Shown in pieces: positions 9,174 to 36,009 of a stretch of 64,000 bases of DNA (the stretch's first letter is position 1; each line of letters starts with the position of its first letter). The translations under genes and the position numbers were made by a program. The notes beneath the pieces were generated by a model. That model was given only the letters and a program-made list of their open reading frames with translations. It ran no database searches and was not told the origin of the DNA. The DNA is from Clostridia bacterium (lineage in GTDB: Bacteria > Bacillota > Clostridia > Oscillospirales > CAG-272). Location of the stretch: NCBI GenBank assembly GCA_017456005.1, contig JAFTLJ010000014.1:17310-81309 (forward strand). The letters are read 5' to 3'.

Positions 9174-9626
9174 TCACGCTTCCAGCTGCTTGCCGAGAAA
9201 GGAAGCCGCTGTTTGAATAAGCTTTATTTCCGTTTCGCGGCCCGGGCATTCGCCTTTTGTTCCTTCGCCCGCAAGCGACATTACACAACCTATAACGTCA
9301 CCCTCTGTGAAAATGGGCATGGCGCAGGATATGTGGCAGCTATCGTTTTCTTCTGTAGGATGGACCTTCTCTGCCGAATTTTCGTCGGTGTAAAGCGAGC
9401 GTGCTTCTATAATTTTTTCCAGGCTATGAGAATTTTTCTTTTCCAAAAATTCTTTTTTGGGCACGCCCGCGCACGCTATGATACAGTCTTTGTCGCATAC
9501 GGCGACGGGCATGTTGCAGGTTTTATAGAGCGTTTCCGCATATTCTGCGGCGAAATCCATAAGCTCGCCTATGGGCGAATATTTTTTGAATATGACCTCG
9601 CCCTCTCTGTCTGTGTATATTTCCAG
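9174..9626 (-). pseudogene. spoVT: spoVT 3' segment (codons 34-183; GAF-like C-terminal domain) of a split gene
   Basis: LEIYTDREGEVIFKKYSPIGELMDFAAEYAETLY...AASFLGKQLEA is collinear with B. subtilis SpoVT residues 34-178 (recalled sequence). It has no start codon of its own and is read as the tail of the recombinase ORF. Confidence 0.9.
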
Positions 9627-11387
9627 CGGGTCGCCGCCGCTGATAACGTTGACACGGAAAACCTTATCGCGCCTTTTTTTGGCGGATTGGGCTGCCACGG
9701 TGGAAAGCTCCTCTGCGGCTTTTTCGATATTTTCCGTGCCGAGGTTAAAATTTACGGCTTGCTTTTCTTTTTCGAAGTGTTCTATTTTACCCGTGCGCAG
9801 AAGCTCGTCTACGTCTGCCTTCAGCTTTATTTCTATGACATCCTCGTAAACGATTATCCTGTCGATGATAAGGTGCAGGTCGCGCTTGTCGAGCTTTTCC
9901 TTTTCGAGTATGTCGCTGAATATGTCGATGACCGTTCTTGCCACGCGGTTCACCTTCGTGATGGTGTTGGTGGTGTTTGCCACCATAGCGAGCTGATTTT
10001 CAAGCCCGTCTATGCGGTTGTTTGCTTCTTCTATGAGCGCGTCGTAGGTTTCTTCTATTATGCGTGCATCGCCCGATGCACGCGCAACGTCGCGTATTTT
10101 TTGGCGCATCATAACCTTTAGCTCGGCGCGTTCTTCCTCAATTTGCTTGCGCAGCTCGTCTGCGGCTTGCATTCCGCTTTCCGTCGTGCGCTTTTCGAAG
10201 TTCAGGTTCTCCTGCAAAATGCGGAGCATTTCGGCGGAATTATCCCTTACCTTGCGGATATACTCTTTTAAGAGGCTATCGAGAAAATCCACGCGGATGT
10301 GGTGCGAGGTGCACCCGGCCGTGCCCCTTACGTGGTAAGTTCCGCAGGTGTATGCGGGCGCGAGATTTTTGCGGCTCATAGCAAACATTGGCGAACCGCA
10401 ATCGCCGCAGAAGAGGAAGCCGGAGTAGGTGTTGTCGTATTTTTTCACACCGCGATAGTTGCTTTTCGTGCGCTGTGCGAGCTGTTCCTGCGCTGTGGCA
10501 AACACTCTGTAATCCACTATTGCTTCGTGGTGGTTTTCAAATACGATATGCTCGCTTTTGTCCAGCTCCACATCGTTGCCGTTGATTTTCTTGCGGCGGT
10601 ATTTGTGCTCGCGCAGCGTACCTATATAGAAATCGTTGTTGATTATTTCGGAAACGGTGACTATGCTCCACTGCTCGCGCACCTTACCCTTGTATTCGTC
10701 TCCCTGCGCCTCCTTGCGTGCGCGTTCGCACATTCTCGGCGTGGGGATGTGCTTGTCTGTGAGGTGGTTGGCTATTTTTTGGTAGCCCCAGCCGTCGATA
10801 TAGAGGTCGAAAATAGTCCTCACCACCTCTGCGGCGGGCTTGTCCACCTCAAAGCTCATTTTTTTGGAGTTGGTCATAACGTACCCGTAGGGAACAGAGC
10901 ATATCCACTCGCCCTTTGCCTGCCTGCTGGCGATAACGTCGGAAACCTTGCGGCTGGCATCGGTAACGGGCATTTCGTTCACGAAGAAGTAGAGCTTTAT
11001 TTTCATCCAGTCGTCCGTGTGGTCCTGGTAATAGTCCACGCCGTCGCCTATGGCTATTATGCGTATATCGTGCTCGGCGATGTCCTCAAATTCTGCCAGC
11101 CCCTTGCCCGTGCGCCTCGAAAAACGGCTAAGGTCCTTTACGATTAGTATATCGTACTCGCCGCGCAGAAGCTTCGGGCGGAGCTTTAAATAATAATCTG
11201 GGCGTTGCTCAAAGGTATAGCCCGAATGGTCGCGGTCTTCATAGTAATCCACGTCGCTTGTGGGAAAATGGAGCTTACAGTAATCTCCGATAATAGCCTT
11301 CTGGTTTTCGATACTCGTGTTGTCCTTGTCGAGCTCAAGGTCAACTGAAATACGCGTATAGGCTGCTATTTTAAAACGCTCTAACAA
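9174..11387 (-). CDS. large serine recombinase (about 587 aa) fused in frame to the spoVT 3' segment
   Basis: The ORF carries a resolvase catalytic motif (AAYTRISV, VKDLSRFSRR), a recombinase domain, a zinc ribbon (CGDCGSPM...CGTYHVRGTAGC) and a coiled coil. TTG start after GGAG. The last 150 aa are SpoVT-derived. Confidence 0.9.
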   Translation of the reverse strand: MLERFKIAAYTRISVDLELDKDNTSIENQKAIIGDYCKLHFPTSDVDYYEDRDHSGYTFEQRPDYYLKLRPKLLRGEYDILIVKDLSRFSRRTGKGLAEFEDIAEHDIRIIAIGDGVDYYQDHTDDWMKIKLYFFVNEMPVTDASRKVSDVIASRQAKGEWICSVPYGYVMTNSKKMSFEVDKPAAEVVRTIFDLYIDGWGYQKIANHLTDKHIPTPRMCERARKEAQGDEYKGKVREQWSIVTVSEIINNDFYIGTLREHKYRRKKINGNDVELDKSEHIVFENHHEAIVDYRVFATAQEQLAQRTKSNYRGVKKYDNTYSGFLFCGDCGSPMFAMSRKNLAPAYTCGTYHVRGTAGCTSHHIRVDFLDSLLKEYIRKVRDNSAEMLRILQENLNFEKRTTESGMQAADELRKQIEEERAELKVMMRQKIRDVARASGDARIIEETYDALIEEANNRIDGLENQLAMVANTTNTITKVNRVARTVIDIFSDILEKEKLDKRDLHLIIDRIIVYEDVIEIKLKADVDELLRTGKIEHFEKEKQAVNFNLGTENIEKAAEELSTVAAQSAKKRRDKVFRVNVISGGDPLEIYTDREGEVIFKKYSPIGELMDFAAEYAETLYKTCNMPVAVCDKDCIIACAGVPKKEFLEKKNSHSLEKIIEARSLYTDENSAEKVHPTEENDSCHISCAMPIFTEGDVIGCVMSLAGEGTKGECPGRETEIKLIQTAASFLGKQLEA
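9606..9655. other. left junction of element (att site half: core CGGGTCGCC 9627-9635)
   Basis: The 9-bp core is identical to 43253-43261. The element-side arm ACGTTGACAC (9646-9655) is the inverted complement of 43234-43243. Confidence 0.8.
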
Positions 11388-11412
11388 TATTGTATTCTCC
11401 TTTCAAAGGTTA

Positions 11413-12801
11413 TTATGAACGGACATACTTTTGATTTTTACTGCTTGGCTTGTCCGGGATAGTTCTGAGCAGCTTTTTTGTTTCGAGTAAGGGGTTCAAG
11501 TATGTGCGTGTAAAATAAGTTAGATTGTTAAAGCCGAGATGTTCACAAATTTCACGCTTGCTTCTTGGTTTTGTGCAAAATTCCAAAATCATCTTAGTCA
11601 CATCTTGGTCACTATCCTGGTCACTATCTCGGTTGCTGAGTGACTGAGATGAATAATTTATATTCTTTAAAATAACGAAGAATGATGAATTGGTAGAATG
11701 GAATGTGGGCTTGAATTCATCAGTATATCCGGGTAATCTTGCGGTTCCTTCTAGAATTTTCCTGAATCCGCTGCCTTGGCGTTCCATATATCCCAAGCGA
11801 CCAAAAATGTCAGCGAGAATAGGGTTGCGACGTGTGGATGATACGTTAGATATATCTCTTTCTTGTATCAGTGTTCCGTCTGCCATACCGCCGGGGGAAT
11901 AAATCGTTAGGCGGTCATCGTAAATATCAATATGGATCTCGCTTCCAAGCACTGTATAGTCGCGGTGAATAAGAGCGTTTACGAGTGCTTCAAAAACGCT
12001 TCGTTCACAGTAATCGGGCATTTCGATGCGAGAATTTGATGTTTTCTTCCAACGTGTTTTCATATTTCGCTTTACAAAGCCAATACCTTCATTAAGCAAG
12101 ATTATCAAACTGCCGGAATATTCTGCGCTGTCCAGAGCGTCAATAACGCCTCCGCTTTTGTCAAGACCGTTCCAGCGTGTGCAGAACAATCGCGAATGGC
12201 GAATAGGAGAACTGTCTGCCAACAGTGCACCTGCATTTGTGAGTTTTCCGTTTTTATCACGCATTTCAAAGGAATCGAACAGCTTATCTTCCATACTGTT
12301 ACCTGTCCAAGCTTTATATTGCTCGCGCATTTTAGAAAAAGCGTAATCCTTGAAATCATATTCTGAAATGAGTGCATCGTAGGTGAGATTCATTCCTTTT
12401 AAAAGCAACTGGTTTAACACGTAGTCGGGCGCAATTACGCTTTCATTGCCTATTCGGATATAGGCTTCTGTTATTCCGTCTGCTTTATAGTAATATGGCG
12501 TTGAGCGTCCTGGATAAACTGTAAGCACCAACAAGTCTTTTCCGTTTTCTTTTTCGGGGGTAAGAACAAAATTCGGAAAAGGCGTGATACGCTCTTTTAT
12601 CAATCGGCTGATATTTTCTGCATCGCTTTGAATATTGTTGAGTCCAATAATGTTTTTATCATTATCAATTCCGAAAAACAGTGTGCCACCGATACCATTT
12701 GCAAAGGCACTGACGCTTTTGAGCCAACTCTTGGGCTTTTTTGTTTCCAATGCAACTTTAAAATCACATTCGGTTGCTTCTGCAATCCATTTGCCTATCA
12801 T
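11413..12801 (-). CDS. AlbA_2 (Schlafen-like) plus HATPase_c_4 domain protein, COG2865-type putative regulator/ATPase
   Basis: 462-aa ORF. It has an N-terminal AlbA_2-like region (SVSAFANGIGGTLFFGID), a central ALVNALIHRDY motif and a C-terminal wHTH-like tail. Confidence 0.65.
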   Translation of the reverse strand: MIGKWIAEATECDFKVALETKKPKSWLKSVSAFANGIGGTLFFGIDNDKNIIGLNNIQSDAENISRLIKERITPFPNFVLTPEKENGKDLLVLTVYPGRSTPYYYKADGITEAYIRIGNESVIAPDYVLNQLLLKGMNLTYDALISEYDFKDYAFSKMREQYKAWTGNSMEDKLFDSFEMRDKNGKLTNAGALLADSSPIRHSRLFCTRWNGLDKSGGVIDALDSAEYSGSLIILLNEGIGFVKRNMKTRWKKTSNSRIEMPDYCERSVFEALVNALIHRDYTVLGSEIHIDIYDDRLTIYSPGGMADGTLIQERDISNVSSTRRNPILADIFGRLGYMERQGSGFRKILEGTARLPGYTDEFKPTFHSTNSSFFVILKNINYSSQSLSNRDSDQDSDQDVTKMILEFCTKPRSKREICEHLGFNNLTYFTRTYLNPLLETKKLLRTIPDKPSSKNQKYVRS

Positions 12802-12867
12802 AAATTTTCGTCCTTTCTAATTGCTTGTGACAATATTGAATTAACTTTACAATTATCTTTCGATAAC

Positions 12868-12896
12868 ATTGTACCATATAAACCGCAGAAAGTCAA
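12868..12896 (-). promoter_or_regulatory. sigma-A-type promoter driving the 12801-9174 transcription unit
   Basis: Minus strand reads TTGACT-N17-TACAAT with TGG extended -10. Confidence 0.55.
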
Positions 12897-12954
12897 CGGT
12901 TTTGTGTATGGAAGAATAATTTGTAAAATTATACGCTTTCGGCTTTTGGTAATG

Positions 12955-13007
12955 AAAAATAGTGAAAAAATAGTGAAAATTAGTGTAAAAATAGTGTAAA
13001 AATAGTG
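12955..13007 (+). repeat. five phased 10-11-bp direct repeats (AAAATAGTG core)
   Basis: aaaaatagtg / aaaaaatagtg / aaaattagtg / taaaaatagtg / taaaaatagtg, immediately upstream of the fic promoter region. Confidence 0.85.
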
Positions 13008-13069
13008 GAATTTTTTGAAGCTATGGTGTATAATAATTTATAGACAATATATTGTAAGGGAATGGTGTT

Positions 13070-14167
13070 ATGGTAAAAGTAATATTGACAAATGAAGCGC
13101 TAAAACGGATTTCTGCCATTGAGGAGAGCCGATTTTCGCTGAAAACGATAGATTTGCCGCAAATTACAAAAAACAGACTTCGTAAAAATTCAAAAAAGAA
13201 AAGCTCGTATGCTTCCAATAAAATAGAGGGCAACCCGCTTACCGAGGCACAGGCGAACGAAGCGATGGAAAGAGATGTTCACAAGCATTTTCTCAAACCC
13301 GAGCAAGAAGTTCGAAATTACTTTTTGGCTTTGAATTTGCTTGAAGAAAAGCTTAAAGCAAAAACACCTTTTTCGAAAGAATTGCTTCTTGAGGTGCAGG
13401 CAATGGTGGAAAAAGGTGCGCCGAAGGAAAAAATCGGGCTCAGAGGCGAAATGCCGCCCGGTGTGCTGTTTGCTGTTTATGATTCGGAAAGCGGATTGCC
13501 GGAATATATCCCTCCGGAATATACGGATATTCCGCAGCTTCTTGATGAGCTTGTTGAATACGTTAATTCCACAGACGACCATCCGCTCATTATTGCGGCT
13601 GTCGTGCATTATCAACTTGTCACAATACATCCATTCGAAGATGGCAACGGGAGAACTGCGAGATTGATGTCGGGGTACATTTTGGATATGTACGGTTACG
13701 GATTTAACGGTATAGGCTCTTTGGAAGAATACTTTGCATATGACCCCGATGAATATTATTCCTCGCTTCAGATGGGTTTGCCCGCACTGTATTATTCAGG
13801 CAGGGACAATCCTCCGCATTTTGAAATTTGGCTGAATTATTTTTTGCGTATGATGGAATTGTATTCTAAAAAAGTATGCGAAATATCGAAAGAAGCGAGC
13901 GAAGACGAGCTTGCGGGAAGTTTATCGTATTTGAATATAAAAGAAAAAGAACTGCTATCATTTCTTCTTCAACATCGCATATATGAATTTACACCTATTG
14001 AAATCAGCAAGCAGCTCGGGGTGACGAACAAGACTGTAATCAATCGGTGCGCCAAACTTACTACAAGTGGGTTTTTGGTGCCGAATATTGTAAAAGAGAG
14101 AGTGCGTTCATACTCGCTTACGGATTTTGCAAAAAGCAATGCAAAACAAATCGTTTCGTTGTATTGA
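13070..14167 (+). CDS. Fic family protein (class II, N-terminal inhibitory motif) with C-terminal wHTH
   Basis: Fic motif HPFEDGNGRTARL. Inhibitory-helix motif SNKIEG matches [ST]xxxE[GN]. Confidence 0.9.
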   Translation: MVKVILTNEALKRISAIEESRFSLKTIDLPQITKNRLRKNSKKKSSYASNKIEGNPLTEAQANEAMERDVHKHFLKPEQEVRNYFLALNLLEEKLKAKTPFSKELLLEVQAMVEKGAPKEKIGLRGEMPPGVLFAVYDSESGLPEYIPPEYTDIPQLLDELVEYVNSTDDHPLIIAAVVHYQLVTIHPFEDGNGRTARLMSGYILDMYGYGFNGIGSLEEYFAYDPDEYYSSLQMGLPALYYSGRDNPPHFEIWLNYFLRMMELYSKKVCEISKEASEDELAGSLSYLNIKEKELLSFLLQHRIYEFTPIEISKQLGVTNKTVINRCAKLTTSGFLVPNIVKERVRSYSLTDFAKSNAKQIVSLY

Positions 14168-14227
14168 AAACCTCTGTAAATCACGCAAAATCAAATTCCT
14201 CGTAATTCGGAGAATTTTTTCGGAAAA

Positions 14228-14375
14228 GTCGATTTTATTCGAATTTTATTCGACAAAAATGTGATTTTATTAGAAAAATAATAAAATTATTCGACAAAAT
14301 ACGATTTTATAAGAAAATTACGAGAAATTTATAAGAAAAATTCGAATAAAATTCTTATAATTTTCGCATAAATTT
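14228..14375. repeat. AT-rich iteron-like array (ATTTTATTCGA / TTCGAATAAAAT / TTATAAGAAAA units)
   Basis: Several direct and inverted copies of 11-12-bp units are visible in a 150-bp non-coding stretch. Confidence 0.7.
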
Positions 14376-14400
14376 CAAATAAAATACATCCTGTTAAGCA

Positions 14401-14430
14401 AAAAGGCTTTGGCGTGCGCCAAAGCCTTTT
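14401..14430. terminator. bidirectional hairpin terminator
   Basis: AAAAGGCTTTGGCG/CGCCAAAGCCTTTT. Confidence 0.65.
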
Positions 14431-14446
14431 CTGCTGTTTACCCGTT

Positions 14447-14712
14447 TCAGCAAAGCTCCTGTTGCGGCTCTTTCCTTGCCATCACTTCCGCGTTATGCTT
14501 CAAAAGCTCGCCCGTGAGCATCGTAAGGTCGCACGTGCCCGATTCAAACAGAACTATGCGGTACTTCTTTTGCCTGTATTCGTCGTATAAAGGCTTCAGC
14601 CTTTCGCGCAAGGCTTCACTTGCCGACTCCGCTTTGGTAAGCCATACCGAAACGTATTTTTTGTCGTCGTGTACGTTTATCTCTATATAGCTCGCCCCCT
14701 TTGTTCTATCAT
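14447..14712 (-). pseudogene. small element-borne ORF disrupted by a frameshift in a G5 run
   Basis: ATG at 14712 gives MIEQRGRAI-stop. The adjacent frame reads ASYIEINVHDDKKYVSVWLTKAESASEALRERLKPLYDEYRQKKYRIVLFESG... to a TGA at 14447. One extra G in the run at 14695-14699 would join the two frames. Confidence 0.5.
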
Positions 14713-14779
14713 TTTTGCCGATATTTTGACAAAATATTCAGTTTTAAGTGTGCTGTATAATTTCACTTTGCCTCCGTAA

Positions 14780-16912
14780 TTATAAGGTTTGTTCAAGTTG
14801 TTTTCGCTTTTTCTGCGTTTTAGGCATGGTGGTGCAATCTTCCGGCACACGGTAGCTTTCTATATTTGCAAGCCCTGCGACGATGTCTAAAATATCCGTG
14901 GCAACGGCGAGTGCTGCGTTCTGCGCCATTCGCGCAAGAGCCACGGCGGCTGGCTCGCACCCTGCCTGCGCCGAGCGGTTGAGGCATTCTATGGCCTTTT
15001 CTATATCAAATATATCCGCCTCGAAAAGATAAGCTTGCGCCAGGCGGTAGTCGGCATACATATTTCCGCGTGCCGAAGCAAGCTCCAAGTGTTCTATGGC
15101 TTTGGCTATATTCTTCTTTACGAGCTTGCCTTCCATATAATATTTGCCGAGGGTGTATGCCGCAAACTCGCTCCCTGCGCTCTCGGCGCGGAAAAGGTGG
15201 CGGAATCCTTTGCTGTGGCTTTCGCCGAACAGGTCGCTTTCCACATAGAGCTTGCCGAGCAGGGCATCGGCAGAAGTGCTTCCGTTTTGCGCGGCTTCCG
15301 AGAGCCATTTTTCCGCTTCAAGCTCGTCCTCCCTATAAACAATGCCGTAAAGAAACATCTTGCCCGTGCGGTACTGCGCCACAGAATAGCCCTTTTCTGC
15401 GGCTTTTGTGAGGTAAATTTCGCCGAGCGCTTCGTTGTAATGCCCGCTGTTTTTATCGAAATAAACGCGCGAAAGGCGATACATAGCGTATACGTTTCCG
15501 AGTCGTGCTTGCTCCTTAAGACGATATATCGAGGTGCCGTTCTCTTGCTCGTCCCCGTCGAAAGGCATATCATCATATAAAGTAGCCTCATCGGGGAAGA
15601 AGCCGCTTATTTCATCAGCAGAGAGATTAGTGCCGCCGTGAGCGCCGAAAGCGCTGCCGAGCCTGCTATCGCCCCAATTATCCAGCGCTTCATCTCGGAG
15701 ATCAGAGCCGAGAATGCCTCCGTATAGCTCTCCGTCGCGGCGTTCAGCTTCGAGAAAAATTGCTCGCGCTTCCTCCCATCCTGTAAAAGCGTTTCCTTGT
15801 TCTCTGCAAGCAGATCCTGCACTTTCGGTACTATACTGCCCGCCGAGGTCTTCACGTCGCGGCTCAGCCTGCCCGACCATTCCTCGATTATCGCCCACAT
15901 CTGCGAAAGGTCCTCCTGCGTTGCCACTTTCCCCTCCAGCGCCGCGAATTTCTCGTACATATTCGGCTGGAATTCCGCCGAGGCTTTCATATATTTGAAG
16001 AAATCCTCCCATATCCTCTCCGGAATCGCATACACTATCGGGCGGTAGGGCGTTTCCTCCACCGTCTTTATCGCTGTTTCCGTGCATTGCTTCAGCTTCG
16101 AAAGCGCTGTGTTTGCCGTGGGTTTGTTCTCTGATTGTAAATTCATATTCCATATTCTCCTTTAAAAATTTAGTTTCGTGCAGGCTCTTGTCACGCACCT
16201 TCATTCCGTTCGGGCAGGTGTAGGTTATGTGCTTTCGGCTGTCCGTCCACGTAACGCCATAGCCTACCGACTCCATAAGCGCGATAAAATCCTGTTTTGT
16301 GCCTGCCATTGTCATCGCTTTTTCGATGTTGTTTATACATTTGAATTTCCAGCTCTCGCCCCTCAGCGCGGAGCGATATTCTCTTGTGTTTATAGCTTTT
16401 GTGCCGAAGCTCTGCTTGTATTCGGGCAGGACGGAAAGGTTGTGCGCGCGGCATATTTCGTCGCTGATTTTTCGCATTTGCTCAAGCGAATGTGTGCCGA
16501 GCTGCAGCTTTTTGCCGTTTTCGAAGCTTACGCTGTTTATAACGAAATGGTTGTGCACACGCTCGGCACCGTCGCTTTCCGCATCGAGATGCGTGCCCAC
16601 GAGAACCTCATAGCCCGCGAACATCCGCGCGGCAAGCTCCGTGCCGATTAGGTGCGCCTCATCGTAGGAGGCGATCTCACCCGGGCGGAAGGATTGCTCG
16701 TAGTGGTAGAAATACGTTCCCTTGCATTTGCCGAAAAGGTTTTTTGTCGCCATAAACTCTTCGAAAGCCGCCTCGCCCATACAGTTTACGCCCGAAAGGT
16801 AACGCCTGCCGTTTTTATCGACCGTCTTTGTGTCCTGTGAAACGTAGCGGATCACCGCGCGCATAGAGCTTTCGTTTTGCTTTGTTTCTCTTATAAAGTT
16901 ACACGTTGCCAC
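14780..16912 (-). CDS. relaxase/mobilization nuclease (MobA/VirD2-type) with C-terminal Sel1-like repeats
   Basis: Histidine triad region THLDAESDGAERVHNHFVINSV. The C-terminus carries at least 5 Sel1/TPR-like repeats (YRLSRVYF, AQYRTGKMFLYG, LGKLYVE, LGKYYMEG, YRLAQAYLF). GTG start at 16912 overlaps the mobC stop. Confidence 0.8.
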   Translation of the reverse strand: MATCNFIRETKQNESSMRAVIRYVSQDTKTVDKNGRRYLSGVNCMGEAAFEEFMATKNLFGKCKGTYFYHYEQSFRPGEIASYDEAHLIGTELAARMFAGYEVLVGTHLDAESDGAERVHNHFVINSVSFENGKKLQLGTHSLEQMRKISDEICRAHNLSVLPEYKQSFGTKAINTREYRSALRGESWKFKCINNIEKAMTMAGTKQDFIALMESVGYGVTWTDSRKHITYTCPNGMKVRDKSLHETKFLKENMEYEFTIREQTHGKHSAFEAEAMHGNSDKDGGGNALPPDSVCDSGEDMGGFLQIYESLGGIPAEYVREIRGAGGESGNAGGPFADVGDNRGMVGQAEPRREDLGGQYSTESAGSACREQGNAFTGWEEARAIFLEAERRDGELYGGILGSDLRDEALDNWGDSRLGSAFGAHGGTNLSADEISGFFPDEATLYDDMPFDGDEQENGTSIYRLKEQARLGNVYAMYRLSRVYFDKNSGHYNEALGEIYLTKAAEKGYSVAQYRTGKMFLYGIVYREDELEAEKWLSEAAQNGSTSADALLGKLYVESDLFGESHSKGFRHLFRAESAGSEFAAYTLGKYYMEGKLVKKNIAKAIEHLELASARGNMYADYRLAQAYLFEADIFDIEKAIECLNRSAQAGCEPAAVALARMAQNAALAVATDILDIVAGLANIESYRVPEDCTTMPKTQKKRKQLEQTL
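15607..16146 (-). CDS. internal alternative-frame ORF (179 aa, helical, C-terminal hydrophobic helix)
   Basis: ATG lies 10 nt after AAGGAG. Its codon third positions resemble the flanking genes, and the amino-acid composition is realistic. It overlaps the low-complexity middle of the relaxase ORF. Confidence 0.5.
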   Translation of the reverse strand: MNLQSENKPTANTALSKLKQCTETAIKTVEETPYRPIVYAIPERIWEDFFKYMKASAEFQPNMYEKFAALEGKVATQEDLSQMWAIIEEWSGRLSRDVKTSAGSIVPKVQDLLAENKETLLQDGRKREQFFSKLNAATESYTEAFSALISEMKRWIIGAIAGSAALSALTAALISLLMK

Positions 16913-17264
16913 TACTCTCGCCTTCCGTTTCCGTGGGCATATTTCCGCTGGCAATAGCGCCGTTTGCTTCTTCGAAGAGGCAGTTTATCGCCGTATAATT
17001 TCTGCAAAGTGCATCTTTGGCGGCGGTCAGGTTTACCGTGTCCACTTGCCCCAGGTGCGAGAGCATAGTGAGCTGATTTAAGTTCCTGCCGATGGCTTTC
17101 AGCTCGCGGAGCGTGGGCTTAAGCTCTTCTATCTGGTAAATATTTTTGCCCAGAGCCGCCGCCAGCAGGTATTCACGCTGTGTCATACCCGAGCGCGCTA
17201 CAGCTTTTGAAATTTTGTTTTTCTCGGCCTCGCTTGCCCAAAAAGATATTTTCTTGTCGCGCAA
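16899..17264 (-). CDS. mobC: MobC-family relaxosome accessory protein
   Basis: RHH-like N-terminus and the motif ELKAIGRNLNQLTMLSH, typical of the bacterial mobilisation protein MobC. It lies directly upstream of the relaxase. Confidence 0.8.
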   Translation of the reverse strand: MRDKKISFWASEAEKNKISKAVARSGMTQREYLLAAALGKNIYQIEELKPTLRELKAIGRNLNQLTMLSHLGQVDTVNLTAAKDALCRNYTAINCLFEEANGAIASGNMPTETEGESSGNV

Positions 17265-17446
17265 GCGGCCTTTTGTTTTGCTTTTTTCTGTGTTGTCTAT
17301 AATGTTTCCTCGCTTTCGTAAAGATAAAAATGTGTTGCAATTTTTTGTTGAATTTCAGATAAAAAAGTGGATTTGCTCCTTGGGTGAAGTCTTTCTTTTG
17401 GGGAGCGAAAACAAGTGGGGTAGGGGGCTTCCGCCCCTTTTTAAAG

Positions 17447-17488
17447 GTGTTTGGGCGAAACGCCGCGGCGCGGTGGGAGCCCAAACAC
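17447..17488. promoter_or_regulatory. candidate oriT inverted repeat
   Basis: Perfect 10-bp inverted repeat GTGTTTGGGC...GCCCAAACAC in the non-coding region upstream of mobC. Confidence 0.35.
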
Positions 17489-17651
17489 TCTGCTTGCCCC
17501 GCTTTCGCGGGAGCTTTTTGGTATATCCGAAAAATAAATTTTGAATTTTAACGGCATTATAGGCGGAAAAGGCGTAACATCCGAAACATATATTTTCTCT
17601 CTTCGGCTTTGAAGCATGTGCTTCGCCTGTCACGCCAAAACGCCTTTTTCC

Positions 17652-19439
17652 TTATATACCTGCGATTTTTTCAGCTTTGCCCTTGTATAGAAGCAGAACG
17701 CGTTTCGTCTTACTTCCGAACCTCATAGAGCGTGTGTTTTTGCCCGTGCCGCTGTTTATAAGCCCTTCATCCGAGAGTGCTTTGGCGAGCGCCTTTGAAG
17801 TGATCGCAAAGCCTTCGCCCTGGTCCTCGCAGAATTTTTTTACTGCCTTGTGTGTCGCTTCAAAGAAGAGATAATAATACTCGTCGTCCTCGTAGCCGAG
17901 GCAACCCGAGGGCAGTGTGACACTTCCGCTGCAGGCAGGAACTACGCAAGCCTGACCGCACTCCACCATAGCGATAAATTTGCGAATGAATATGTGGGTA
18001 GGTCTGTCTTGCTCTACCGCTTCGGATTGATGCGCGGCGTGGGCGAGCATAATGGCTTCGTAATTTGCCTTTGCCTTTTCTGCTTCGTTCTGTGCCAGCA
18101 CGCCGCTGTGAAGCAGAAAAGAGAGCAGATGGGAAAAACCGAGCGCAAGGCACGCCAGCGTATCCGGTATACGGTCGTGGAATTTTACGCCGTTTTCGCG
18201 GAGCTTTTCGCGCCAATATGCGCGCGTGTTTTTGTATTCCTCGCCGAGCGCTTCGAGGAAAGCTTCGCTTTGCTCGTCGCTCGAAAGCCTCGTTTCCCTT
18301 AGCCACTCGGTGTAGGCATACATCGTGTGCGTAAGCTTTCCCTTGGAGGCGCGCTCCTGGAGCTCCGTAAGGTAGGGAAGGTCTATTTGTCCGGGCTTCA
18401 TTTCAATGCAGAAAAGGCGCGCTGTGCCGCTTTCACCTATGTCGGGCGCGAACTCCGCCGTTACTATGACGTTGCCCTGAGGAGGTCTTGCTTCACGCAG
18501 AGTAATATCCGGGGTGAGGCGGTTGCGTGCGGCGCGGTCGCCGTATCCTCGCGCCACCGTTTGCATAATAGCCTTCATATTTTCGCTTTCTCTTTTGCCC
18601 GTGGGGTGGTAATCGTCCACGCACGTAAGCACATCTTTGAGCGAGTAGGCGCTGTGAGCGATGCTGTTCGCCGTGTCGCGAAAACTCATAGGCAGGTCGG
18701 TTGCCGAAAAACTGCCGAAGAATGAGGTCATAAGCGCGGCAACGGTGCTTTTCATGCTACCCGTTCTGCCGAGCAAGGTGAGAATGAATTTAGGCTCGTG
18801 CCCCGTTTGCCTCAAAAATTCGTTCAGCGGAGAGAGAAATACCAGCGCAAGGCAGGGAAGTGCGATCTCCCTGGGTATGAGGTCGAGGCAGAGAAACCCG
18901 ATAATCTCTTCAAAGTCGGTATCTTCCGCTATTGGTTCTAAAAAATAGCCGCGCTGTTTCCCTTGGAGCTGTACGTCGAAATCTCCGTTTCCGGGCATAA
19001 GATATTCCCATTTGCCGCCAATCTTTTTCCAGCCTGTGCGAGTGTAGATGAATTTCTTTTCGGCGAACCTCGCCGTACCTTTCATCGCGTGGCGAACGTG
19101 CTTTTCTACCTGCGGTATAATTTCAAGGTCGAGGCAGGCATCGAGGCTGTTGTGAAGCCAATCCATCTTTTCAAGCTCCGTGGCGGCTATTTCCACTGGC
19201 GGAAGCTCGCGCCCGTTTTCATCTGTGCCGCCGATTAGGTATTTGCAGGTTTGCTCCGTGCCGTTGTCGATGGTTAGAACGCTCATAATGCGCGGCGCGA
19301 AATTACAAAGGCGCGTATAGCTTTCTCCGTGTCGCGTGTATGACACCTTGCAAAGGCACCCGTCAACTGCTTCATACGGGCTTGGGTAGATGTTTTCTTC
19401 TGTTTGTTCGCGTGTGAGTTGTCTTGTTTTTTCGTTCAA
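17652..19439 (-). CDS. P-loop NTPase, plasmid/phage replication-type (SF3 helicase / DUF927-like)
   Basis: 595-aa ORF with Walker A GRTGSMKST and a Walker B-like VLTCVDDY. Its context is next to the mobilization genes. The family assignment is tentative. Confidence 0.45.
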   Translation of the reverse strand: MNEKTRQLTREQTEENIYPSPYEAVDGCLCKVSYTRHGESYTRLCNFAPRIMSVLTIDNGTEQTCKYLIGGTDENGRELPPVEIAATELEKMDWLHNSLDACLDLEIIPQVEKHVRHAMKGTARFAEKKFIYTRTGWKKIGGKWEYLMPGNGDFDVQLQGKQRGYFLEPIAEDTDFEEIIGFLCLDLIPREIALPCLALVFLSPLNEFLRQTGHEPKFILTLLGRTGSMKSTVAALMTSFFGSFSATDLPMSFRDTANSIAHSAYSLKDVLTCVDDYHPTGKRESENMKAIMQTVARGYGDRAARNRLTPDITLREARPPQGNVIVTAEFAPDIGESGTARLFCIEMKPGQIDLPYLTELQERASKGKLTHTMYAYTEWLRETRLSSDEQSEAFLEALGEEYKNTRAYWREKLRENGVKFHDRIPDTLACLALGFSHLLSFLLHSGVLAQNEAEKAKANYEAIMLAHAAHQSEAVEQDRPTHIFIRKFIAMVECGQACVVPACSGSVTLPSGCLGYEDDEYYYLFFEATHKAVKKFCEDQGEGFAITSKALAKALSDEGLINSGTGKNTRSMRFGSKTKRVLLLYKGKAEKIAGI

Positions 19440-19502
19440 TTAAAAATTTTCCTTTCTTCGCGGTAGATTTTTCAGTGACCGCGATTATGTAACCGGGCAC
19501 GG

Positions 19503-19588
19503 AAAAACAAAAAAGCCGTTGCATAACGGTACGACGAAACGGAGGTAGCGGCTACCCCTTATTTCGTACTCGCTATGTAACGGCTTTT
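19503..19588 (-). other. long imperfect hairpin followed by a U-run in the 5' leader of the 19439 gene
   Basis: AAAAGCCGTT.CATA..GTACGA... pairs with ...TCGTAC..TATG.AACGGCTTTT. On the minus strand it is followed by TTTTTTGTTTTTCC. Confidence 0.5.
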
Positions 19589-19958
19589 AGCCAAAAAGTG
19601 CTTTCCTAAAAAATAATATTATGTTGTATATGTTTAATCCCATTTGGGAATAATAAAAATGGGAAAATGTGCGTTTTTAGCACTATGTAAATTGTAAGCA
19701 TATTATACCATTTTTGCGGCATTTTTTCAAGAGATTTTTGAAAAAAGCCCTGTTTTCTCTCTTTTTGCCAAAGGAAGCGGGTGTTATGAGCGAAATAAAA
19801 ACAAACATTTGTGCGTTTTAAACATAAATATATTCGGAAAGGCTAAGAAAATACTTGGTTTGGGCATAAAAAAACAGATGGATTTTGAAATGTTTATTTG
19901 AAAATCTTTCTGTTTTGCCTCTTTTGAGCGAAAGATTTTGGAAAGCAGAGGGTAAACC

Positions 19959-19987
19959 TTGACATAATCGACAGTTTGTGCTATACT
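19959..19987 (+). promoter_or_regulatory. strong sigma-A-type promoter of the polysaccharide locus
   Basis: TTGACA-N17-TATACT with TGC extended -10, about 160 nt upstream of the first ORF. Confidence 0.6.
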
Positions 19988-20145
19988 ATAGAAGTAAAAT
20001 AAGGCGAAGTTATGCATTGATTTTGAAAAAATATGCAACTTTGCTCAGTTGCTACGCATAAAAACAGTATTGGTCACTCCAATGATGGAATTGCAAAAAT
20101 ACAATTCGGTATTCGGGGAGATGACGGGCGGAGGAGGTAAATTAA

Positions 20146-20736
20146 GTGAACAATTTGCTTATACTCGGCGCGGGTCAGTTTGGCCTGATGGTAAAAGAAA
20201 TAGCCGAGAGTATGAATTGCTTCGATAAAATAGATTTTTTAGACGATAAAAATGAGCTTGCCGTCGGCAAACTCTGAGATTATGCGAATTTTTCGCGCGA
20301 ATACCGCTATGCGGTGGTGGCAATCGGTAACCCGGAGATACGCCTCTCATACATTCAAAAGCTTGAGGAGGCTTGCTTTATTGTGGCAGTTATCGCAAGC
20401 CCGAGGGCGTATATTGCACCTTCTGCACAGATAATGAAAGGCTCTATAATCGAGCCTATGGCGGTTGTACAGGCAAACTCCGTTGTGGCAATAGGCTCGA
20501 TAATCTCGTCGGGGGCGGTGGTTCGCCATAACGCCTTCGTCGGCGACGTGTGCCACGTAGACTGCAACGCCGTAGTAATATCGGGCGGCATGGTGAGAGC
20601 AAAAACAAAGGTCGAGGCTTGCACTGTGTATAGGGATTACCCTGCGGAAGCAAAAAAGACGATTACGGTAACAATCCCGTCGGGCGGTCTCGAATCGGTA
20701 GACGGGCTTGAATATAAATTTGAAGACGGAATGTGA
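20146..20736 (+). pseudogene. NeuD/PglD-type sugar N-acetyltransferase interrupted by an in-frame TGA
   Basis: GTG start after GGAGG. The N-terminus LILGAGQFG is Rossmann-like. An in-frame TGA lies at 20275-20277. The hexapeptide-repeat part continues in the same frame to 20736. Confidence 0.7.
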
Positions 20737-20747
20737 GGTTTCTTCCT

Positions 20748-21383
20748 ATGTACAAACATTTTTTCAAAAGATTTATTGACATTGTTTTGTCGTTCATTGG
20801 CGGAATCGTGCTTTTGCCCGTGTTCCTTATCATCGCTATAGCGATAGTGATAGACGACCCCGGCCCCGTATTCTTCAGACAGAAGCGCGTGGGCAAAAAC
20901 AAAAAGCTTTTCTGGCTCCACAAGTTCAGAAGCATGAAGGTTAAAACACCCGATATTCCCACTCACTTGCTCGAAAATCCTGAACAGTACATAACGCGCG
21001 TTGGTAAATTCCTGCGCAAAACCAGCCTTGACGAGCTTCCCCAGGTTTATGACATTTTGTTCGGCAAAATGTCAATCATCGGTCCCCGTCCCGCACTTTG
21101 GAACCAGGATGACCTTATCGCAGAGCGCGACAAATACGGCGCGAACGATATAAAACCGGGTCTTACTGGTTGGGCGCAGATAAACGGCAGAGACGAGCTT
21201 GAAATTCCCGTTAAGGCAAAGCTTGACGGCGAATACGTTGAAAAAATGAGCTTCGGCTTCGACTGTAAATGCTTCTTCGGCACTATCACGAGCGTGCTTA
21301 AGCACGACGGTGTTGTTGAAGGCGGTACGGGAGAAATGAAGCGCGAAGCGGAAGAGAAAGAAAAAGAGGCAGCCGGAAAATGA
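20748..21383 (+). CDS. initiating phosphoglycosyl transferase (small bacterial sugar transferase, PglC/WbaP-C type)
   Basis: One N-terminal membrane helix, plus motifs PGPVFFRQKRVG, DELPQ and IIGPRP. Confidence 0.9.
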   Translation: MYKHFFKRFIDIVLSFIGGIVLLPVFLIIAIAIVIDDPGPVFFRQKRVGKNKKLFWLHKFRSMKVKTPDIPTHLLENPEQYITRVGKFLRKTSLDELPQVYDILFGKMSIIGPRPALWNQDDLIAERDKYGANDIKPGLTGWAQINGRDELEIPVKAKLDGEYVEKMSFGFDCKCFFGTITSVLKHDGVVEGGTGEMKREAEEKEKEAAGK

Positions 21384-22255
21384 AAAAGATTCTGATTACA
21401 GGCGCAAATAGCTACATAGGGGTTTCGTTTGAAAACTATATGAAGCAGTGGGCTGACGAATACTCCGTTGACACTGTCGATATGATAGACGGCACGTGGC
21501 GAGATAAGGACTTCGGCGGCTATGACGCGGTATTCCATGTTGCGGGAATAGCGCACTCCGATAACGGAAAGATAAGCGCGGAAAAAGAGAAGCTTTACTA
21601 CGCCGTAAATACGGATCTTACGGTAGAAACAGCGAAAAAGGCAAAGGCTGACGGCGCAAAGCAGTTCATTTTTATGAGTTCCGCTATCGTTTACGGAGAG
21701 AGTGCGCCTATCGGCAAAACGAAAGTAATCACAAAAGACACACCCACGTCCCCTGCGAATTGCTACGGTGACAGCAAGGTTCAGGCTGAGAAGGGAATAC
21801 TTCCTTTGAATGATGATAATTTCAAGGTTGTGGTTCTCCGTCCTCCTATGATATACGGCAAGGGAAGCAAGGGTAATTACCCGACACTTGCTAAAATGGC
21901 GCTGAAAATGCCTGTTTTTCCCTATGTGAAAAACGAGCGTTCGATGCTCTATATAGGAAATCTCTGCGAATTTATCAGACTCATGATAGTTAACGGCGAG
22001 CAGGGGATATTTTGGCCACAGAACGGCGAGTACAGCAATACCGCCGAGCTTGTCCGTATGATAGCGGCGGCGCACGGCAAAAAAGTCGGTCTTGTAAAGG
22101 GCTTCGTTTGGGCGCTGAAGGCTATGAGCCCGTTCACGGGGCTTGTGAACAAGGCGTTTGGTAGCTTGAGCTACGATATGAGCTTGAGCGAGTATAAGGA
22201 AAATTACAGAGTGACGACTTTGGAAGAGTCTATAAAAATGACGGAGGCTATATGA
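21380..22255 (+). CDS. NAD-dependent sugar epimerase/dehydratase (SDR)
   Basis: Rossmann motif GANSYIG and catalytic YGDSK. Confidence 0.8.
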   Translation: MKKILITGANSYIGVSFENYMKQWADEYSVDTVDMIDGTWRDKDFGGYDAVFHVAGIAHSDNGKISAEKEKLYYAVNTDLTVETAKKAKADGAKQFIFMSSAIVYGESAPIGKTKVITKDTPTSPANCYGDSKVQAEKGILPLNDDNFKVVVLRPPMIYGKGSKGNYPTLAKMALKMPVFPYVKNERSMLYIGNLCEFIRLMIVNGEQGIFWPQNGEYSNTAELVRMIAAAHGKKVGLVKGFVWALKAMSPFTGLVNKAFGSLSYDMSLSEYKENYRVTTLEESIKMTEAI

Positions 22256-23334
22256 GCAAGATTTTATTTCTGGTCAATCACGATGTCGTAATTTACAATT
22301 TCCGTTTGGAACTGGTCGAAAGACTGCTTGTTGACGGTCATACCGTTGTAATTTCTTCTCCTTACGGTGAAAGAATAGAAGATCTGAAAAAACTTGGTTG
22401 TGAATACAAAGAAATTGAAATATCACGCCATGGAATGAATCCGGTAAAAGAAATGGCGTTGATTTCCGCATACAAGAAATTGCTTAAAGAAGTAAAACCC
22501 GACATTGTTTTTGCATATACCATAAAGCCAAATATTTACGGTGCGATCGCTTGCAGATCAATGAAAATTCCTTGCGTTGCCAATATAACGGGATTGGGTA
22601 CTGCTGTGGAGAGCGGTGGAGTTGTGCAGAAAATAACCGTTTTGCTCTATAAATACGCATTTACACAGATTCAAAAAGTGTATTTTCAGAATACAGAAAA
22701 TATGCAGTTTTTCATAGACCATAAAATAGCAACTGATAAGCACGATCTCTTGCCCGGTTCGGGGGTAAATCTCCAAAGATTCGTTCCGCTGGATTATCCG
22801 TCCGATGAAAAGGTAGAGTTTGCATTTATCTCCCGTATCATGAAGGAAAAAGGCGTGGATCAGTATCTTGAGGCTGCGGAATATATTCGCGAAAAGTACC
22901 CGAACACCGTATTTCACGTTTGCGGATTCTGCGAGCAGGCTTATGAAGAAAAGCTGAGGGACTTGAACGATCGCGGTATTGTTGTATATCATGGTATGGT
23001 CCGCGACATTAAAACAGTTTTGAAGGATATTCATTGTACAATACATCCTACGTATTATCCCGAGGGCATATCAAACGTATTGCTGGAAAGCTCCGCGTGC
23101 GCGCGCCCTATCATAACCACCAACCGTTCCGGTTGCCGCGAGGTTATTGACGATGGTATAAACGGATTTATCGTAAATCAAAAGGATAGCAAGGATCTGA
23201 TCGAGAAAATAGAAAAATTCTTATCGCTTTCTTGGGAGGAACGCAGGAATATGGGTCTTGCGGGAAGAGCAAAGGTGGAGAAGGAATTTGATAGACAGAT
23301 TGTTGTAGAGAAGTATGTGAATGAACTGAATTGA
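22252..23334 (+). CDS. glycosyltransferase, GT4 (GT-B fold)
   Basis: 360-aa ORF. The C-terminal half has the EGISNVLLESSACARPII motif typical of GT4. Confidence 0.8.
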   Translation: MSKILFLVNHDVVIYNFRLELVERLLVDGHTVVISSPYGERIEDLKKLGCEYKEIEISRHGMNPVKEMALISAYKKLLKEVKPDIVFAYTIKPNIYGAIACRSMKIPCVANITGLGTAVESGGVVQKITVLLYKYAFTQIQKVYFQNTENMQFFIDHKIATDKHDLLPGSGVNLQRFVPLDYPSDEKVEFAFISRIMKEKGVDQYLEAAEYIREKYPNTVFHVCGFCEQAYEEKLRDLNDRGIVVYHGMVRDIKTVLKDIHCTIHPTYYPEGISNVLLESSACARPIITTNRSGCREVIDDGINGFIVNQKDSKDLIEKIEKFLSLSWEERRNMGLAGRAKVEKEFDRQIVVEKYVNELN

Positions 23335-23347
23335 GGAGATATAGCAT

Positions 23348-23908
23348 ATGAATAAATATATCAGAACAATGTTTTGTTTGCCTTTTGGTATGTTGAAAAT
23401 GGCATTTACCAAAGTTTTTCATATAAGAACATTTAAAGGATCTTTATACAGTGTAGTATCTCCTTTTACGGAAATATCCCTTGAATATGGGGCTAAATTA
23501 AATATTGGCAGAAAATTCAGAATGCGCGATGGAGCTAAGATAAGAGTTCGTAAAGGTGCTGAATGTAAGATAGGCAAGAATGTTTCAGTTAATAGCAATA
23601 ACATGATTGCGTGTCATGAAAGTATATTTATTGGTGACAACATTCAATTTGGACCGAATGTTCAGATTTATGATCATGACCACGATTTTCGTGCTGAAGG
23701 TGGAGTATCGGCAATGAAATATAAAACAGCCCCTGTTGAAATAGGCAACAATGTGTGGGTCGGTGCAAATGTGGTGATATTACGAGGAACAAAAATTGGT
23801 GATAACTGCGTTGTTGGCGCAGGTGCGGTCATAAAAGGAAATTACCCTGATAACAGTATCATTGTCCAAAAGAGGGTAGAGGATGTTCGCGCAATATCAA
23901 AAAATTGA
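23348..23908 (+). CDS. hexapeptide-repeat O-acetyltransferase
   Basis: LbH repeats (IGNNVWVGANVVILRGTKIGDNCVVGAGAVI). Confidence 0.8.
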   Translation: MNKYIRTMFCLPFGMLKMAFTKVFHIRTFKGSLYSVVSPFTEISLEYGAKLNIGRKFRMRDGAKIRVRKGAECKIGKNVSVNSNNMIACHESIFIGDNIQFGPNVQIYDHDHDFRAEGGVSAMKYKTAPVEIGNNVWVGANVVILRGTKIGDNCVVGAGAVIKGNYPDNSIIVQKRVEDVRAISKN

Positions 23909-23984
23909 TTTTAATTTTCTGTAATCAGAAAATACGATTCAAAAACGTGTTTTGCGTAACTTTTATAAGGAGAAAACAAAGACG

Positions 23985-25157: not shown

Positions 25158-25158
25158 A

Positions 25159-25755: not shown

Positions 25756-25775
25756 ATATTATCTAAGAGGATTTT

Positions 25776-27014: not shown

Positions 27015-27031
27015 AGCGGAGACGATAAAAT

Positions 27032-29039: not shown

Positions 29040-29069
29040 TTGTGATATGAGAATTAGGAGATGACATGT

Positions 29070-30335: not shown

Positions 30336-30398
30336 TATACCTTATTATAAACATTATAAACTCGACGGTCATGGTCTTCAAAAAAGGAGAGACGATTT

Positions 30399-31325: not shown

Positions 31326-31360
31326 ATTTTATATAACTTGTGATTTGGAGAGGGGTAAAT

Positions 31361-32569: not shown

Positions 32570-32626
32570 TATGCTCTATAGTATCGAATATGGATTTTAT
32601 TATTTACGGTAATCAAAAGGGGTTAT

Positions 32627-35123: not shown

Positions 35124-35424
35124 TTGTTGGGATAGAATTCTTCGAACGCATAATTTTTGAAGAATATTGCTATTTTATTGAAATTGCGTGATTGCTAATT
35201 AACGATAGAAATAAAATTTGAAGCAACATATAAAGCAACATATACTGACTTCGTCCCTCCACGTTTACAGCGTCACATAGCATTTGCTCATTCTAAAAAG
35301 TAGACGTACTTAATTGCTAAGTCAGAAAAAGAAAGCTTTGTCGAAAACCTTAGGAACAGATACTTTTACCAAAGTTTTTTGCCAAGATTTTTTCAAAAAA
35401 AGCGGAAATATGAGAAAAAATCAA

Positions 35425-35974: not shown

Positions 35975-36009
35975 GGAATAAGCAAATAAATATTAGGAGA
36001 TGACTAACA

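Follow-up and report, generated by a model that had tools for sequence, protein, structure and literature searches.

Integration of a mobilizable element into spoVT exchanges the 3′ ends of its serine recombinase gene and the host gene

Two chimeric reading frames at the ends of the element

The stretch analyzed here, 64,000 nucleotides of a Clostridia bacterium contig (JAFTLJ010000014.1, positions 17,310 to 81,309; hereafter the window), carries an element inserted in the host gene spoVT. At one end of this element, at positions 9174-11387, lies a 737-codon open reading frame (ORF) with a TTG start codon, which joins a large serine recombinase (LSR) to the C-terminal part of SpoVT (Table 1). 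Pfam places a Resolvase domain (PF00239, residues 8-160, E 6.6e-13), a Recombinase domain (PF07508, 185-306) and a Zn_ribbon_recom domain (PF13408, 321-378) ahead of SpoVT_C (PF15714, 608-736, E 2.5e-36), and a sequence search of the PDB matched residues 54-485 to the SPbeta integrase structure 9dxh and residues 578-736 to the crystal structure of Bacillus subtilis SpoVT, 2w1t (E 2.8e-30). The recombinase part has the sequence features of an LSR, namely a resolvase-type catalytic domain, a recombinase domain and a zinc ribbon with an inserted coiled coil, and the motif AAYTRISVD is invariant across 23 aligned relatives. A preliminary description of this DNA, made from the sequence alone, had proposed that a recombinase of about 587 residues reads through into 150 SpoVT codons, and on this the ORF and the Pfam domains agree.

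The other half of spoVT was located 33.6 kb away by a six-frame peptide search of the window. It forms a 62-aa ORF, placed behind the spoVT ribosome-binding site (RBS), that reads MKATGIVRRIDDLGRVVIPKEIRRTMRIREGDP and then SQMTLTQTERFCIAMIDFGDRAGLNSKKP; spoVT codons 1-33 continue here into 29 element codons, as had also been described, and PF04014 matches residues 7-32 of the spoVT 5′ fragment. The core sequence GGCGACCCG is in an identical frame in the two ORFs and encodes Gly-Asp-Pro in each, which bears out the proposal that the crossover core lies inside both coding sequences. Joining the halves in silico yields a 183-aa SpoVT with both its domains restored (AbrB-like N-terminal and GAF-like C-terminal; intact homologues, such as P0149 and P0181, are known) and a 616-aa recombinase ending in ...VISGGDPSQMTLTQTERFCIAMIDFGDRAGLNSKKP, reproducing the products that had been predicted for the excised state. 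The region 9174-11387 is the right-hand junction (attR) of an element integrated in spoVT codons 33-35, and since the codon phase at the crossover is shared by both genes (GGC-GA/C-CC, with the slash at the crossover), integration exchanges the 3′ ends of the recombinase gene and spoVT.

Table 1. Features of the junctions and of the inserted element (positions are those of the window)
Feature	Position	Strand	Basis
Chimeric ORF, 737 aa, LSR::SpoVT C-terminal part, attR side	9174..11387	-	ORF list, Pfam, PDB sequence matches
Host spoVT 3′ part, codons 34-183 and stop: second AbrB-like beta-hairpin and GAF-like domain	9174..9626	-	PF15714, 2w1t, rejoined SpoVT, AlphaFold2 model
Element-encoded recombinase part, codons 1-587: resolvase, recombinase, zinc-ribbon, coiled-coil, poorly modelled C-terminal linker	9627..11387	-	Pfam, PDB, AlphaFold2 model
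Core copy GGCGACCCG (Gly-Asp-Pro) at attR	9627..9635	-	sequence
attR: 22-nt P arm GTGTCAACGTTATCAGCGGCGG, then centre CGAC; predicted crossover GA 9631-9632	9630..9655	-	arm symmetry
Inserted element, 33,626 bp between predicted crossovers	9631..43257	.	junction coordinates
Schlafen AlbA_2/HATPase_c_4/Fic-like_C protein (cargo)	11413..12801	-	Pfam
Sigma-70-like promoter, TTGACT-17-TACAAT, extended TG	12868..12896	-	sequence
Fic/DOC protein with helix-turn-helix domain (cargo)	13070..14167	+	PF02661, E 2.2e-18
Small conserved ORF, ~75 aa, no Pfam match	14450..14674	-	63% identity to L001 80-aa ORF
MobA/VirD2-family relaxase with Sel1 repeats	14780..16954	-	PF03432, E 3.7e-31; 64% identity to L001 relaxase
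NikA-like/MobC relaxosome accessory protein	16899..17264	-	PF21983, E 6.5e-16; 65% identity to L001 protein
DUF927 protein	17652..19439	-	PF06048, E 4.5e-06
Polysaccharide (capsule or exopolysaccharide type) biosynthesis cluster, ~22 kb (cargo)	20314..42562	+	Pfam, GC
Terminator-like hairpin and U-run, overlapping the tail-ORF stop codon	43147..43174	-	folding
attL ORF, 62 aa: SpoVT 1-33 and 29-aa native recombinase tail	43163..43351	-	peptide search, Pfam
P′ arm CCGTCGCAGATGACGTTGACAC; its reverse complement matches the P arm at 19/22	43234..43255	-	direct sequence comparison
Core copy GGCGACCCG (Gly-Asp-Pro) at attL; predicted GA 43257-43258	43253..43261	-	sequence

The window apparently comes from a metagenome-assembled genome (MAG), and the read-through might in principle be the product of a sequencing or assembly error or of a chimeric MAG contig. 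The 737-aa protein is deposited identically as MBQ7290365.1 ('recombinase family protein') and the 62-aa protein as MBQ7290394.1 ('AbrB/MazE/SpoVT family DNA-binding domain-containing protein', on 30 contigs), and identical copies of both occur on many independent contigs and in many samples. The 90%-identity cluster of the window's chimera has 18 members from independent assemblies, the same architecture is found in at least 120 further 90%-identity clusters (733-790 aa, 69-99% identity to the chimera), and more spoVT chimeras, at 54-61% identity, are present among 50%-identity representatives. The junction falls at one and the same residue in at least 144 distinct chimeras, and when 23 chimeras were aligned the sequence across it, ...DKVFRVNVISGGDP/LEIYTDREGEVIFKKYSP, hardly varied; the flanks of occupied and empty sites match. 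Recurrence across independent assemblies effectively refutes an artefact, to which we assign practically no probability, and rules out a sequencing error at the junction. The arrangement is real, recurrent and so far apparently undescribed, and hundreds of database entries annotated as ~740-aa 'recombinase family protein' or ~60-aa 'AbrB/MazE/SpoVT family' proteins are junction chimeras. Conservation of the in-frame fusion is nevertheless no evidence of selection, because the chimeras descend from one attP/attB pairing in which the dual-coded core locks the frame.

Left junctions were sought in a collection with one genome per species, using a DNA pattern composed of the core and the P′ arm. 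Ninety stretches matched, and 79 of them are clean SpoVT(1-33) fusions with a readable tail; the remainder include a few at contig ends or with a damaged spoVT 5′ end and two with sequence other than spoVT upstream. Matches in an alphaproteobacterium (L023) and in Chloroflexota (L065) look like chance, and one in a viral contig (L097), which falls inside an unrelated ORF, is a chance match. The hosts are Oscillospiraceae, Ruminococcus, Acutalibacteraceae, Flavonifractor, Oscillibacter and some Lachnospiraceae; carriers include Flavonifractor sp. An100 (L080, NZ_NFMA01000039.1), apparently a cultured isolate, and Oscillibacter sp. NK-OSC (L072). Insertions into spoVT are thus frequent among Oscillospiraceae, Ruminococcus and Acutalibacteraceae of the gut and rumen, and interruption of the gene could alter sporulation in many uncultured species. 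Among annotated phages and plasmids, none exceeded 55% identity; the two best records, both labelled 'Bacteriophage sp.', are unverified faecal scaffolds, one of which ends at the junction while the other holds another spoVT chimera.

The native tail of the recombinase and the attachment sites

The 29 element codons of the 62-aa ORF are not accidental read-through, since neither their length nor their sequence drifts. Tail length is 27-30 aa in 63 of the 79 left-junction tails, and past the P′ arm it varies with a standard deviation of 5.2 codons, compared with 18 and 21 in the other two frames. When residues were counted in the 70 tails of 26-32 aa, at positions outside the bases fixed by the search pattern, position 14 was F/Y in 66, position 17 A/G in 57, position 18 V/M/I in 63, position 21 L/I/F/A/V in 67 and position 24 R in 64, a motif that is helix-like in character. 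These comparisons indicate that the tail is constrained at the protein level and is a coding part of the recombinase. The hairpin that overlaps its stop codon has a folding energy of -14.4 kcal/mol (z -3.75), and none of 200 shuffled sequences folded as well. Furthermore, a contiguous homologous tail is present in relatives at 36-47% identity, namely P0200, P0202, P0208 and P0217 (ending, for example, ...NINVVREGEGFVTTLSLIERYCYAIVLLSSR... in P0200 and ...NIDSEGDPSQTTLEAMDGFVFSLHSMVKR... in P0202). The P0200 gene is located in the middle of a phage-like contig (L100) with NrdD, dUTPase and endolysin genes, which is the unintegrated arrangement. Because the tail is constrained, has its own terminator and is contiguous in distant relatives, the native recombinase gene spans attP, and the integrated copy is for that reason able to encode only the recombinase(1-587)::SpoVT(34-183) chimera. 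The preliminary description had placed attP inside the 3′ end of the recombinase gene, with the two DNA states encoding different enzyme forms; this holds family-wide, and relatives do have attP at the equivalent place.

In an AlphaFold2 model of P0202 with a mean predicted local distance difference test score (pLDDT) of 84, the attP-encoded residues 528-538 form a low-confidence linker that leads to a terminal helix (535-558), which suggests that the native 616-aa form likewise ends in a flexible attP-encoded linker and then a conserved amphipathic helix. The model of the chimera has long helices at 366-495, a pLDDT below 50 at 532-608 and a SpoVT domain at about 80-87. The swap point is accordingly at a domain boundary on the recombinase side; on the SpoVT side we take it, from our reading of the AbrB fold, to lie just ahead of the second AbrB-like hairpin. 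We also considered the end of the recombinase as a mimic of the lost N-terminal half of SpoVT, but the two have only I-x-x-G-D-P in common, and a restored DNA-binding domain was thought unlikely.

The reconstructed attP is GTGTCAACGTTATCAGCGGCGG-CGAC-CCGTCGCAGATGACGTTGACAC, about 48 bp long, with two inverted arms of 22 nt that match at 19 of 22 positions around a symmetry centre of GA, and it lies in the recombinase coding sequence 29 codons ahead of the stop. Several comparisons fit a crossover at this GA, which is the predicted crossover dinucleotide: P0157 has the same recombinase and diverges right after ...GGCGGCGA (...GGC GGC GA); a relative on L098 has an unbroken in-gene palindrome with 25-nt arms around TGAC; the phage-like L100 has CAATGTTGT arms around TGAA; and the empty and occupied sites of one species are identical from GGCGACCC on. 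Within the recombinase ORF the P arm codes for ...R V N V I S G G D, and its DNA is nearly invariant, third codon positions included, among elements whose recombinases are about 70% identical, consistent with a P arm that doubles as coding sequence and binding site.

These sites are of the LSR type, that is, a short attP with imperfect inverted arms around a non-palindromic dinucleotide, and equivalent palindromes occur in relatives. The enzyme shares with SPbeta SprA/YokA and the TnpX/TndX LSRs the domain order resolvase, recombinase and zinc ribbon with coiled coil, and with LSRs in general the short att sites, the imperfect inverted arms with a central dinucleotide and a recombinase gene at the extreme end of the element. 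It differs from them in that attP lies within the enzyme's own frame, so that the integrated and free C-termini differ, and from the multi-target TnpX/TndX type in that it is without DUF4368. In a literature search that covered few subscription journals, we found no report of a serine recombinase whose own gene contains attP, nor of spoVT as an integration target or interrupted gene.

Two of the contigs with contiguous tails have further features. The relative on L098 (10001-11683; P0202, 560 aa), with its intact attP-like palindrome in the 3′ end, lies between clpS/clpA and a metallo-beta-lactamase gene, near an ATP synthase operon, and an intact attP is surprising on such chromosome-like DNA. 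On L100 the nrdD gene is called in two parts and is closely followed downstream by an HNH endonuclease gene, and the contig also carries reverse transcriptase, RelA/SpoT-like and SocA/Panacea-domain genes.

Movement between hosts and the fate of the chimeric enzyme

The gene content of the inserted DNA identifies it as an integrative mobilizable element (IME), because it has a relaxase module and no conjugation-pore proteins were seen; in a Pfam scan, no type IV secretion system or coupling-protein domain was found among the ORFs scanned across the 33.6 kb. A prophage was dismissed, as a relaxase and a NikA-like protein are present and the same scan returned zero phage structural genes. The integration module, MobA-type relaxase, NikA-like protein, variable cargo and lack of an own conjugation apparatus are shared with the Bacillota IMEs with serine recombinases (review PMC5704250); the target at spoVT codons 33-35, the in-gene attP and a cargo consisting of a 22-kb polysaccharide cluster set the present element apart from these.

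Evidence for movement came from empty sites and from a comparison of the two parts of the chimeras. In the species that carries P0111, empty sites hold an intact 175-aa SpoVT (P0149), and the genes downstream of it, for two F5/8 type C proteins and glycyl-tRNA synthetase, are those that follow the chimera in occupied genomes. When the recombinase and SpoVT parts of 144 chimeras were compared pairwise, 778 pairs were at least 90% identical in the recombinase part and at most 65% identical in the SpoVT part, and several pairs were 100% identical in the former and 56-64% in the latter. The reverse pattern (recombinase at most 75%, SpoVT at least 85%) was found in 16 pairs. Given these discordant identities, identical elements reside in different hosts and different elements in one host lineage, which indicates recent transfer of the element between hosts. 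Either the chimera supports excision or help arrives in trans.

We consider it probable that the fusion is the inherited geometric result of where attP is placed, within the final 30 codons of the recombinase gene and in register with spoVT. The native 616-aa form, made from the free circle, would integrate the element after transfer, and the 737-aa chimera would still excise it, probably helped by a directionality factor. The conserved ~75-aa ORF is a candidate for such a recombination directionality factor (RDF), and its 80-aa counterpart in a related element (L001) sits directly upstream of the recombinase gene. The SpoVT GAF-like domain would be a tethered passenger that the enzyme tolerates, and the tail, once detached, would form the end of the 62-aa SpoVT(1-33)::tail peptide.

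Several results weigh against this account. No excised attP junction was found in two metagenome scans with attP patterns and one viral-contig scan, although this is a weak negative because the metagenome scans were made without a positive control and assembly tends to follow the dominant, integrated path. In the one-genome-per-species scan, the spoVT-associated matches were all left junctions. Neither the exact 616-aa protein nor the exact rejoined 183-aa SpoVT of the window's species was present in a collection of 15 billion proteins, and an 80-aa query across attP retrieved only two 62-aa left-junction proteins, with a candidate filter too narrow to inform. The AlphaFold2 model of the chimera is of low confidence (mean pLDDT 55.8), and contacts are not readable from it. 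Finally, the 9 bases common to both junctions prevent direct mapping of the crossover dinucleotide, and the exact crossover base is for this reason only inferred.

Serine integrases are valued because a separate directionality factor sets their direction. Here the DNA state itself selects which of two enzyme forms can be made, which offers a natural system for testing how C-terminal extensions affect direction, and the exchange might itself act as a directionality switch. The native tail would then be needed for, or would favour, attP x attB recombination, and either the loss of the tail or the gain of a GAF-like dimeriser would make the chimera competent for, or biased towards, attL x attR, much as in engineered integrase-RDF fusions. 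The two DNA states necessarily encode different enzymes; the protein-level constraint on the tail implies that the tail does something; elements leave chromosomes although the chimera alone is encoded there; and with the swap point in a flexible linker both products should fold. SPbeta integrase with C-terminal RDF fusions has moreover been made and solved (entry 9dxd), so the fold is compatible with C-terminal fusions. On the other hand, the role of the SpoVT GAF-like domain as a ligand or dimerisation sensor that biases direction, put forward in the preliminary description, is a suggestion, and any specific contact would have to tolerate SpoVT parts that are 56-64% identical for identical recombinases. 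Descent from a single ancestor with a locked core explains the conservation of the frame, and a directionality factor of the usual kind could be encoded separately, by the conserved small ORF. A state-dependent switch is therefore an idea that we hold only tentatively, as possible but rather unlikely; if the two forms did differ in direction, they would make a compact self-contained switch for engineering.

The closest parallel to a site within the enzyme's own gene is found in the archaeal 'suicidal' integrases, in which integration partitions the integrase gene and which a 2021 review describes as exclusive to Archaea (PMC8371274). As in the integrases of the SSV, pTN3 and pT26-2 types, the site lies in the own gene and the DNA state decides which protein is made. 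The archaeal enzymes are, however, tyrosine recombinases (PF16795) whose gene is cut into two inactive halves, whereas here a serine enzyme exchanges the last 29 of its 616 residues and gains a folded host domain in frame. The window's recombinase is an analogue, not a member, of this group, and gives these integrases, whose own gene is split on integration, a counterpart among bacterial serine recombinases. If integration were suicidal here too, loss of the tail or the 150 foreign residues would inactivate the enzyme, and an incoming related element would rescue it in trans. The failure to find an excised form in the genome, metagenome and viral-contig scans or the protein look-up is what this predicts, the archaeal precedent comes with a trans-rescue model (PMC8371274), and co-resident elements do exist, as some MAGs hold several related junctions. 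Yet just 29 of 616 residues are removed, leaving the catalytic and DNA-binding domains all intact; the occurrence of identical recombinases in hosts with a SpoVT divergence of about 40% implies frequent recent escape from chromosomes; and the retained relaxase module is useful only after excision. We judge inactivation of the chimera improbable, and prefer an enzyme that still excises with its passenger domain.

A second parallel is the integration-dependent immunity of mycobacteriophages (Broussard et al. 2013), in which the repressor gene contains attP and integration serves as a molecular switch; as summarised in PMC8092301, an ssrA-like degradation tag is removed there, with a stop at attL, and the integrase is of the tyrosine type. 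Integration splits a gene at attP in both cases, but the split gene is the repressor in the phages and the recombinase here, where the ORF continues into 150 host codons. The tails end here in ...RLGK, ...RYIGK or ...SKKP, which we do not read as ssrA-tag-like, and the window system is an analogue only of integration-dependent immunity.

In B. subtilis spoVT is a forespore (sigma-G) gene, and for a serine integrase integration is the default reaction when a directionality factor is absent. The known sporulation intervening elements are, to our knowledge, all in mother-cell genes, from which excision is not inherited. An element that behaved like skin in sigK or SPbeta in spsM would excise during sporulation to rebuild spoVT; as spoVT is active in the forespore, the spore would have to retain the circle until its re-integration on germination. 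Almost every carrier has both spoVT halves intact, and for one chimera cluster of 1058 members an intact-length SpoVT was seen in 0 of the 15 listed (of 40 read); both observations would favour such a cycle, as would integration by default. Recent insertion, however, explains intact halves equally well, and the forespore transcription of spoVT contrasts with the mother-cell genes that the known elements occupy. The recombinase promoter of relatives is of the vegetative type, with a strong sigma-70-like TTGACA-N17-TGATACAAT just 5′ of the recombinase gene in L001 and L005. Skin/sigK, SPbeta/spsM, gin/gerE and yin/yabG resemble the present case in that a sporulation coding sequence is interrupted by an element with a serine recombinase gene at its end (PMC4191935, PMC5595907) and in the short identical cores at both junctions (PMC5595907). 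They differ from it in that spoVT was not found among the reported targets, and the literature search did not return it as an interrupted gene; in that the present element is mobilizable, bears a relaxase and shows signs of frequent interspecies transfer; and in that reciprocal in-frame protein chimeras have not been described for them. We regard developmental excision as very improbable.

An elaboration of this idea, to which we attach a very slim chance, would make the reciprocal swap a split-protein sensor of host development. The integrated recombinase lacks its C-terminal helix, which would be made only as part of the 62-aa peptide from the spoVT promoter and RBS and would appear only once the forespore turns on spoVT. 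Since the swap would cut the AbrB-like barrel between its hairpins, the peptide (beta1-beta2-helix) and the chimera (beta3-beta4 and GAF) could re-associate, so that the enzyme would regain its tail and excision would be set off at the very time SpoVT is required. The spore would retain the circle, and on germination the native enzyme would insert it again.

Gene content of the element and further junction loci

From the recombinase end, the element contains genes for the AlbA_2 protein, the Fic protein, the ~75-aa ORF, the relaxase, the NikA-like protein, the DUF927 protein and the polysaccharide cluster. Relatives have the compact order NikA-like protein, relaxase, small ORFs and recombinase, with variable remaining cargo, and the relaxase of L001 adjoins its recombinase. 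In the window the AlbA_2/HATPase_c_4 and Fic/DOC genes separate the mobilisation module from the recombinase, at a spot that is empty in relatives; both proteins may be defence or addiction cargo. The AlbA_2 gene thereby intervenes between promoter and recombinase gene, where relatives have the promoter immediately upstream. Only 25 nt lie between its stop and the recombinase start, and the promoter at 12868-12896 probably drives the two genes jointly. The DUF927 protein possibly belongs to the replication or mobilisation module of the element. A related element on L001 carries, at 3452-6409 on the minus strand, a 985-aa PF05183 (RdRP) protein as cargo.

The polysaccharide cluster appears complete. 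It encodes a sugar transferase, glycosyltransferases, Wzy-like, flippase-like and pyruvyl transferase proteins, as well as fucose and galactose activation genes and a GDP-mannose-dehydratase-like enzyme. Its GC content is 34-37% at 22-35 kb, the middle 13 kb of the cluster, against 45-53% around it, and the cargo looks mosaic and recently imported. Elements of this family thus carry large cargo across species, in this case a 22-kb surface-polysaccharide cluster.

A second kind of recombinase fusion was met in the representative search. P0248 (813 aa) has a recombinase 33% identical to that of the window, and its C-terminus is the C-terminal half of an NMT1/THI5-like protein (PF13379, profile positions 122-249 of 252). 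It looks from these matches like a second recombinase::target fusion with another target, and in-gene attP may be a wider trait of the recombinase clade.

Some genomes hold more than one junction. A Ruminococcus MAG contig (L070, CAMNJD010000430.1) carries, in a span of 8 kb, three complete 5′ stubs of spoVT, at about 741, 6373 and 7852; they are co-oriented, and each has an RBS, an ATG, 33 codons, the P′ arm and a tail, with differing DNA sequences. This MAG has four junction-type loci in all, and two each are found on LVAJ01000021.1 (L016/L034) and MSGZ01000035.1 (L068/L084). Such multiple stubs suggest nested or accreted elements, or left junctions carried along from earlier hosts. At L084 (MSGZ01000035.1, ~3190-5010) a CRISPR array of at least 27 copies of CCCGCACCCGCGGGGGTGATCC with a 61-nt period replaces the spoVT 5′ half, and its last repeat is followed immediately by the P′ arm and tail ORF of an element; the repeat end CGCGGGGGTGATCC is similar to the attB left half CGCGAGGGCGACCC, with 5 additional bases before the core.

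A SpoVT-like paralogue with the sequence ...RRTLRIRM/GDP (...RIRE/GDP in the canonical protein) is also occupied, in L034, L063, L071 and L087, sometimes together with an occupied canonical spoVT in one genome. In L029 and L060, and also in L037, L064 and L071, the first ~12 codons of the stub are exchanged for unrelated sequence (...IFGFHLTQADDLGRVV...), and these altered starts could reflect stub decay or a second insertion upstream.

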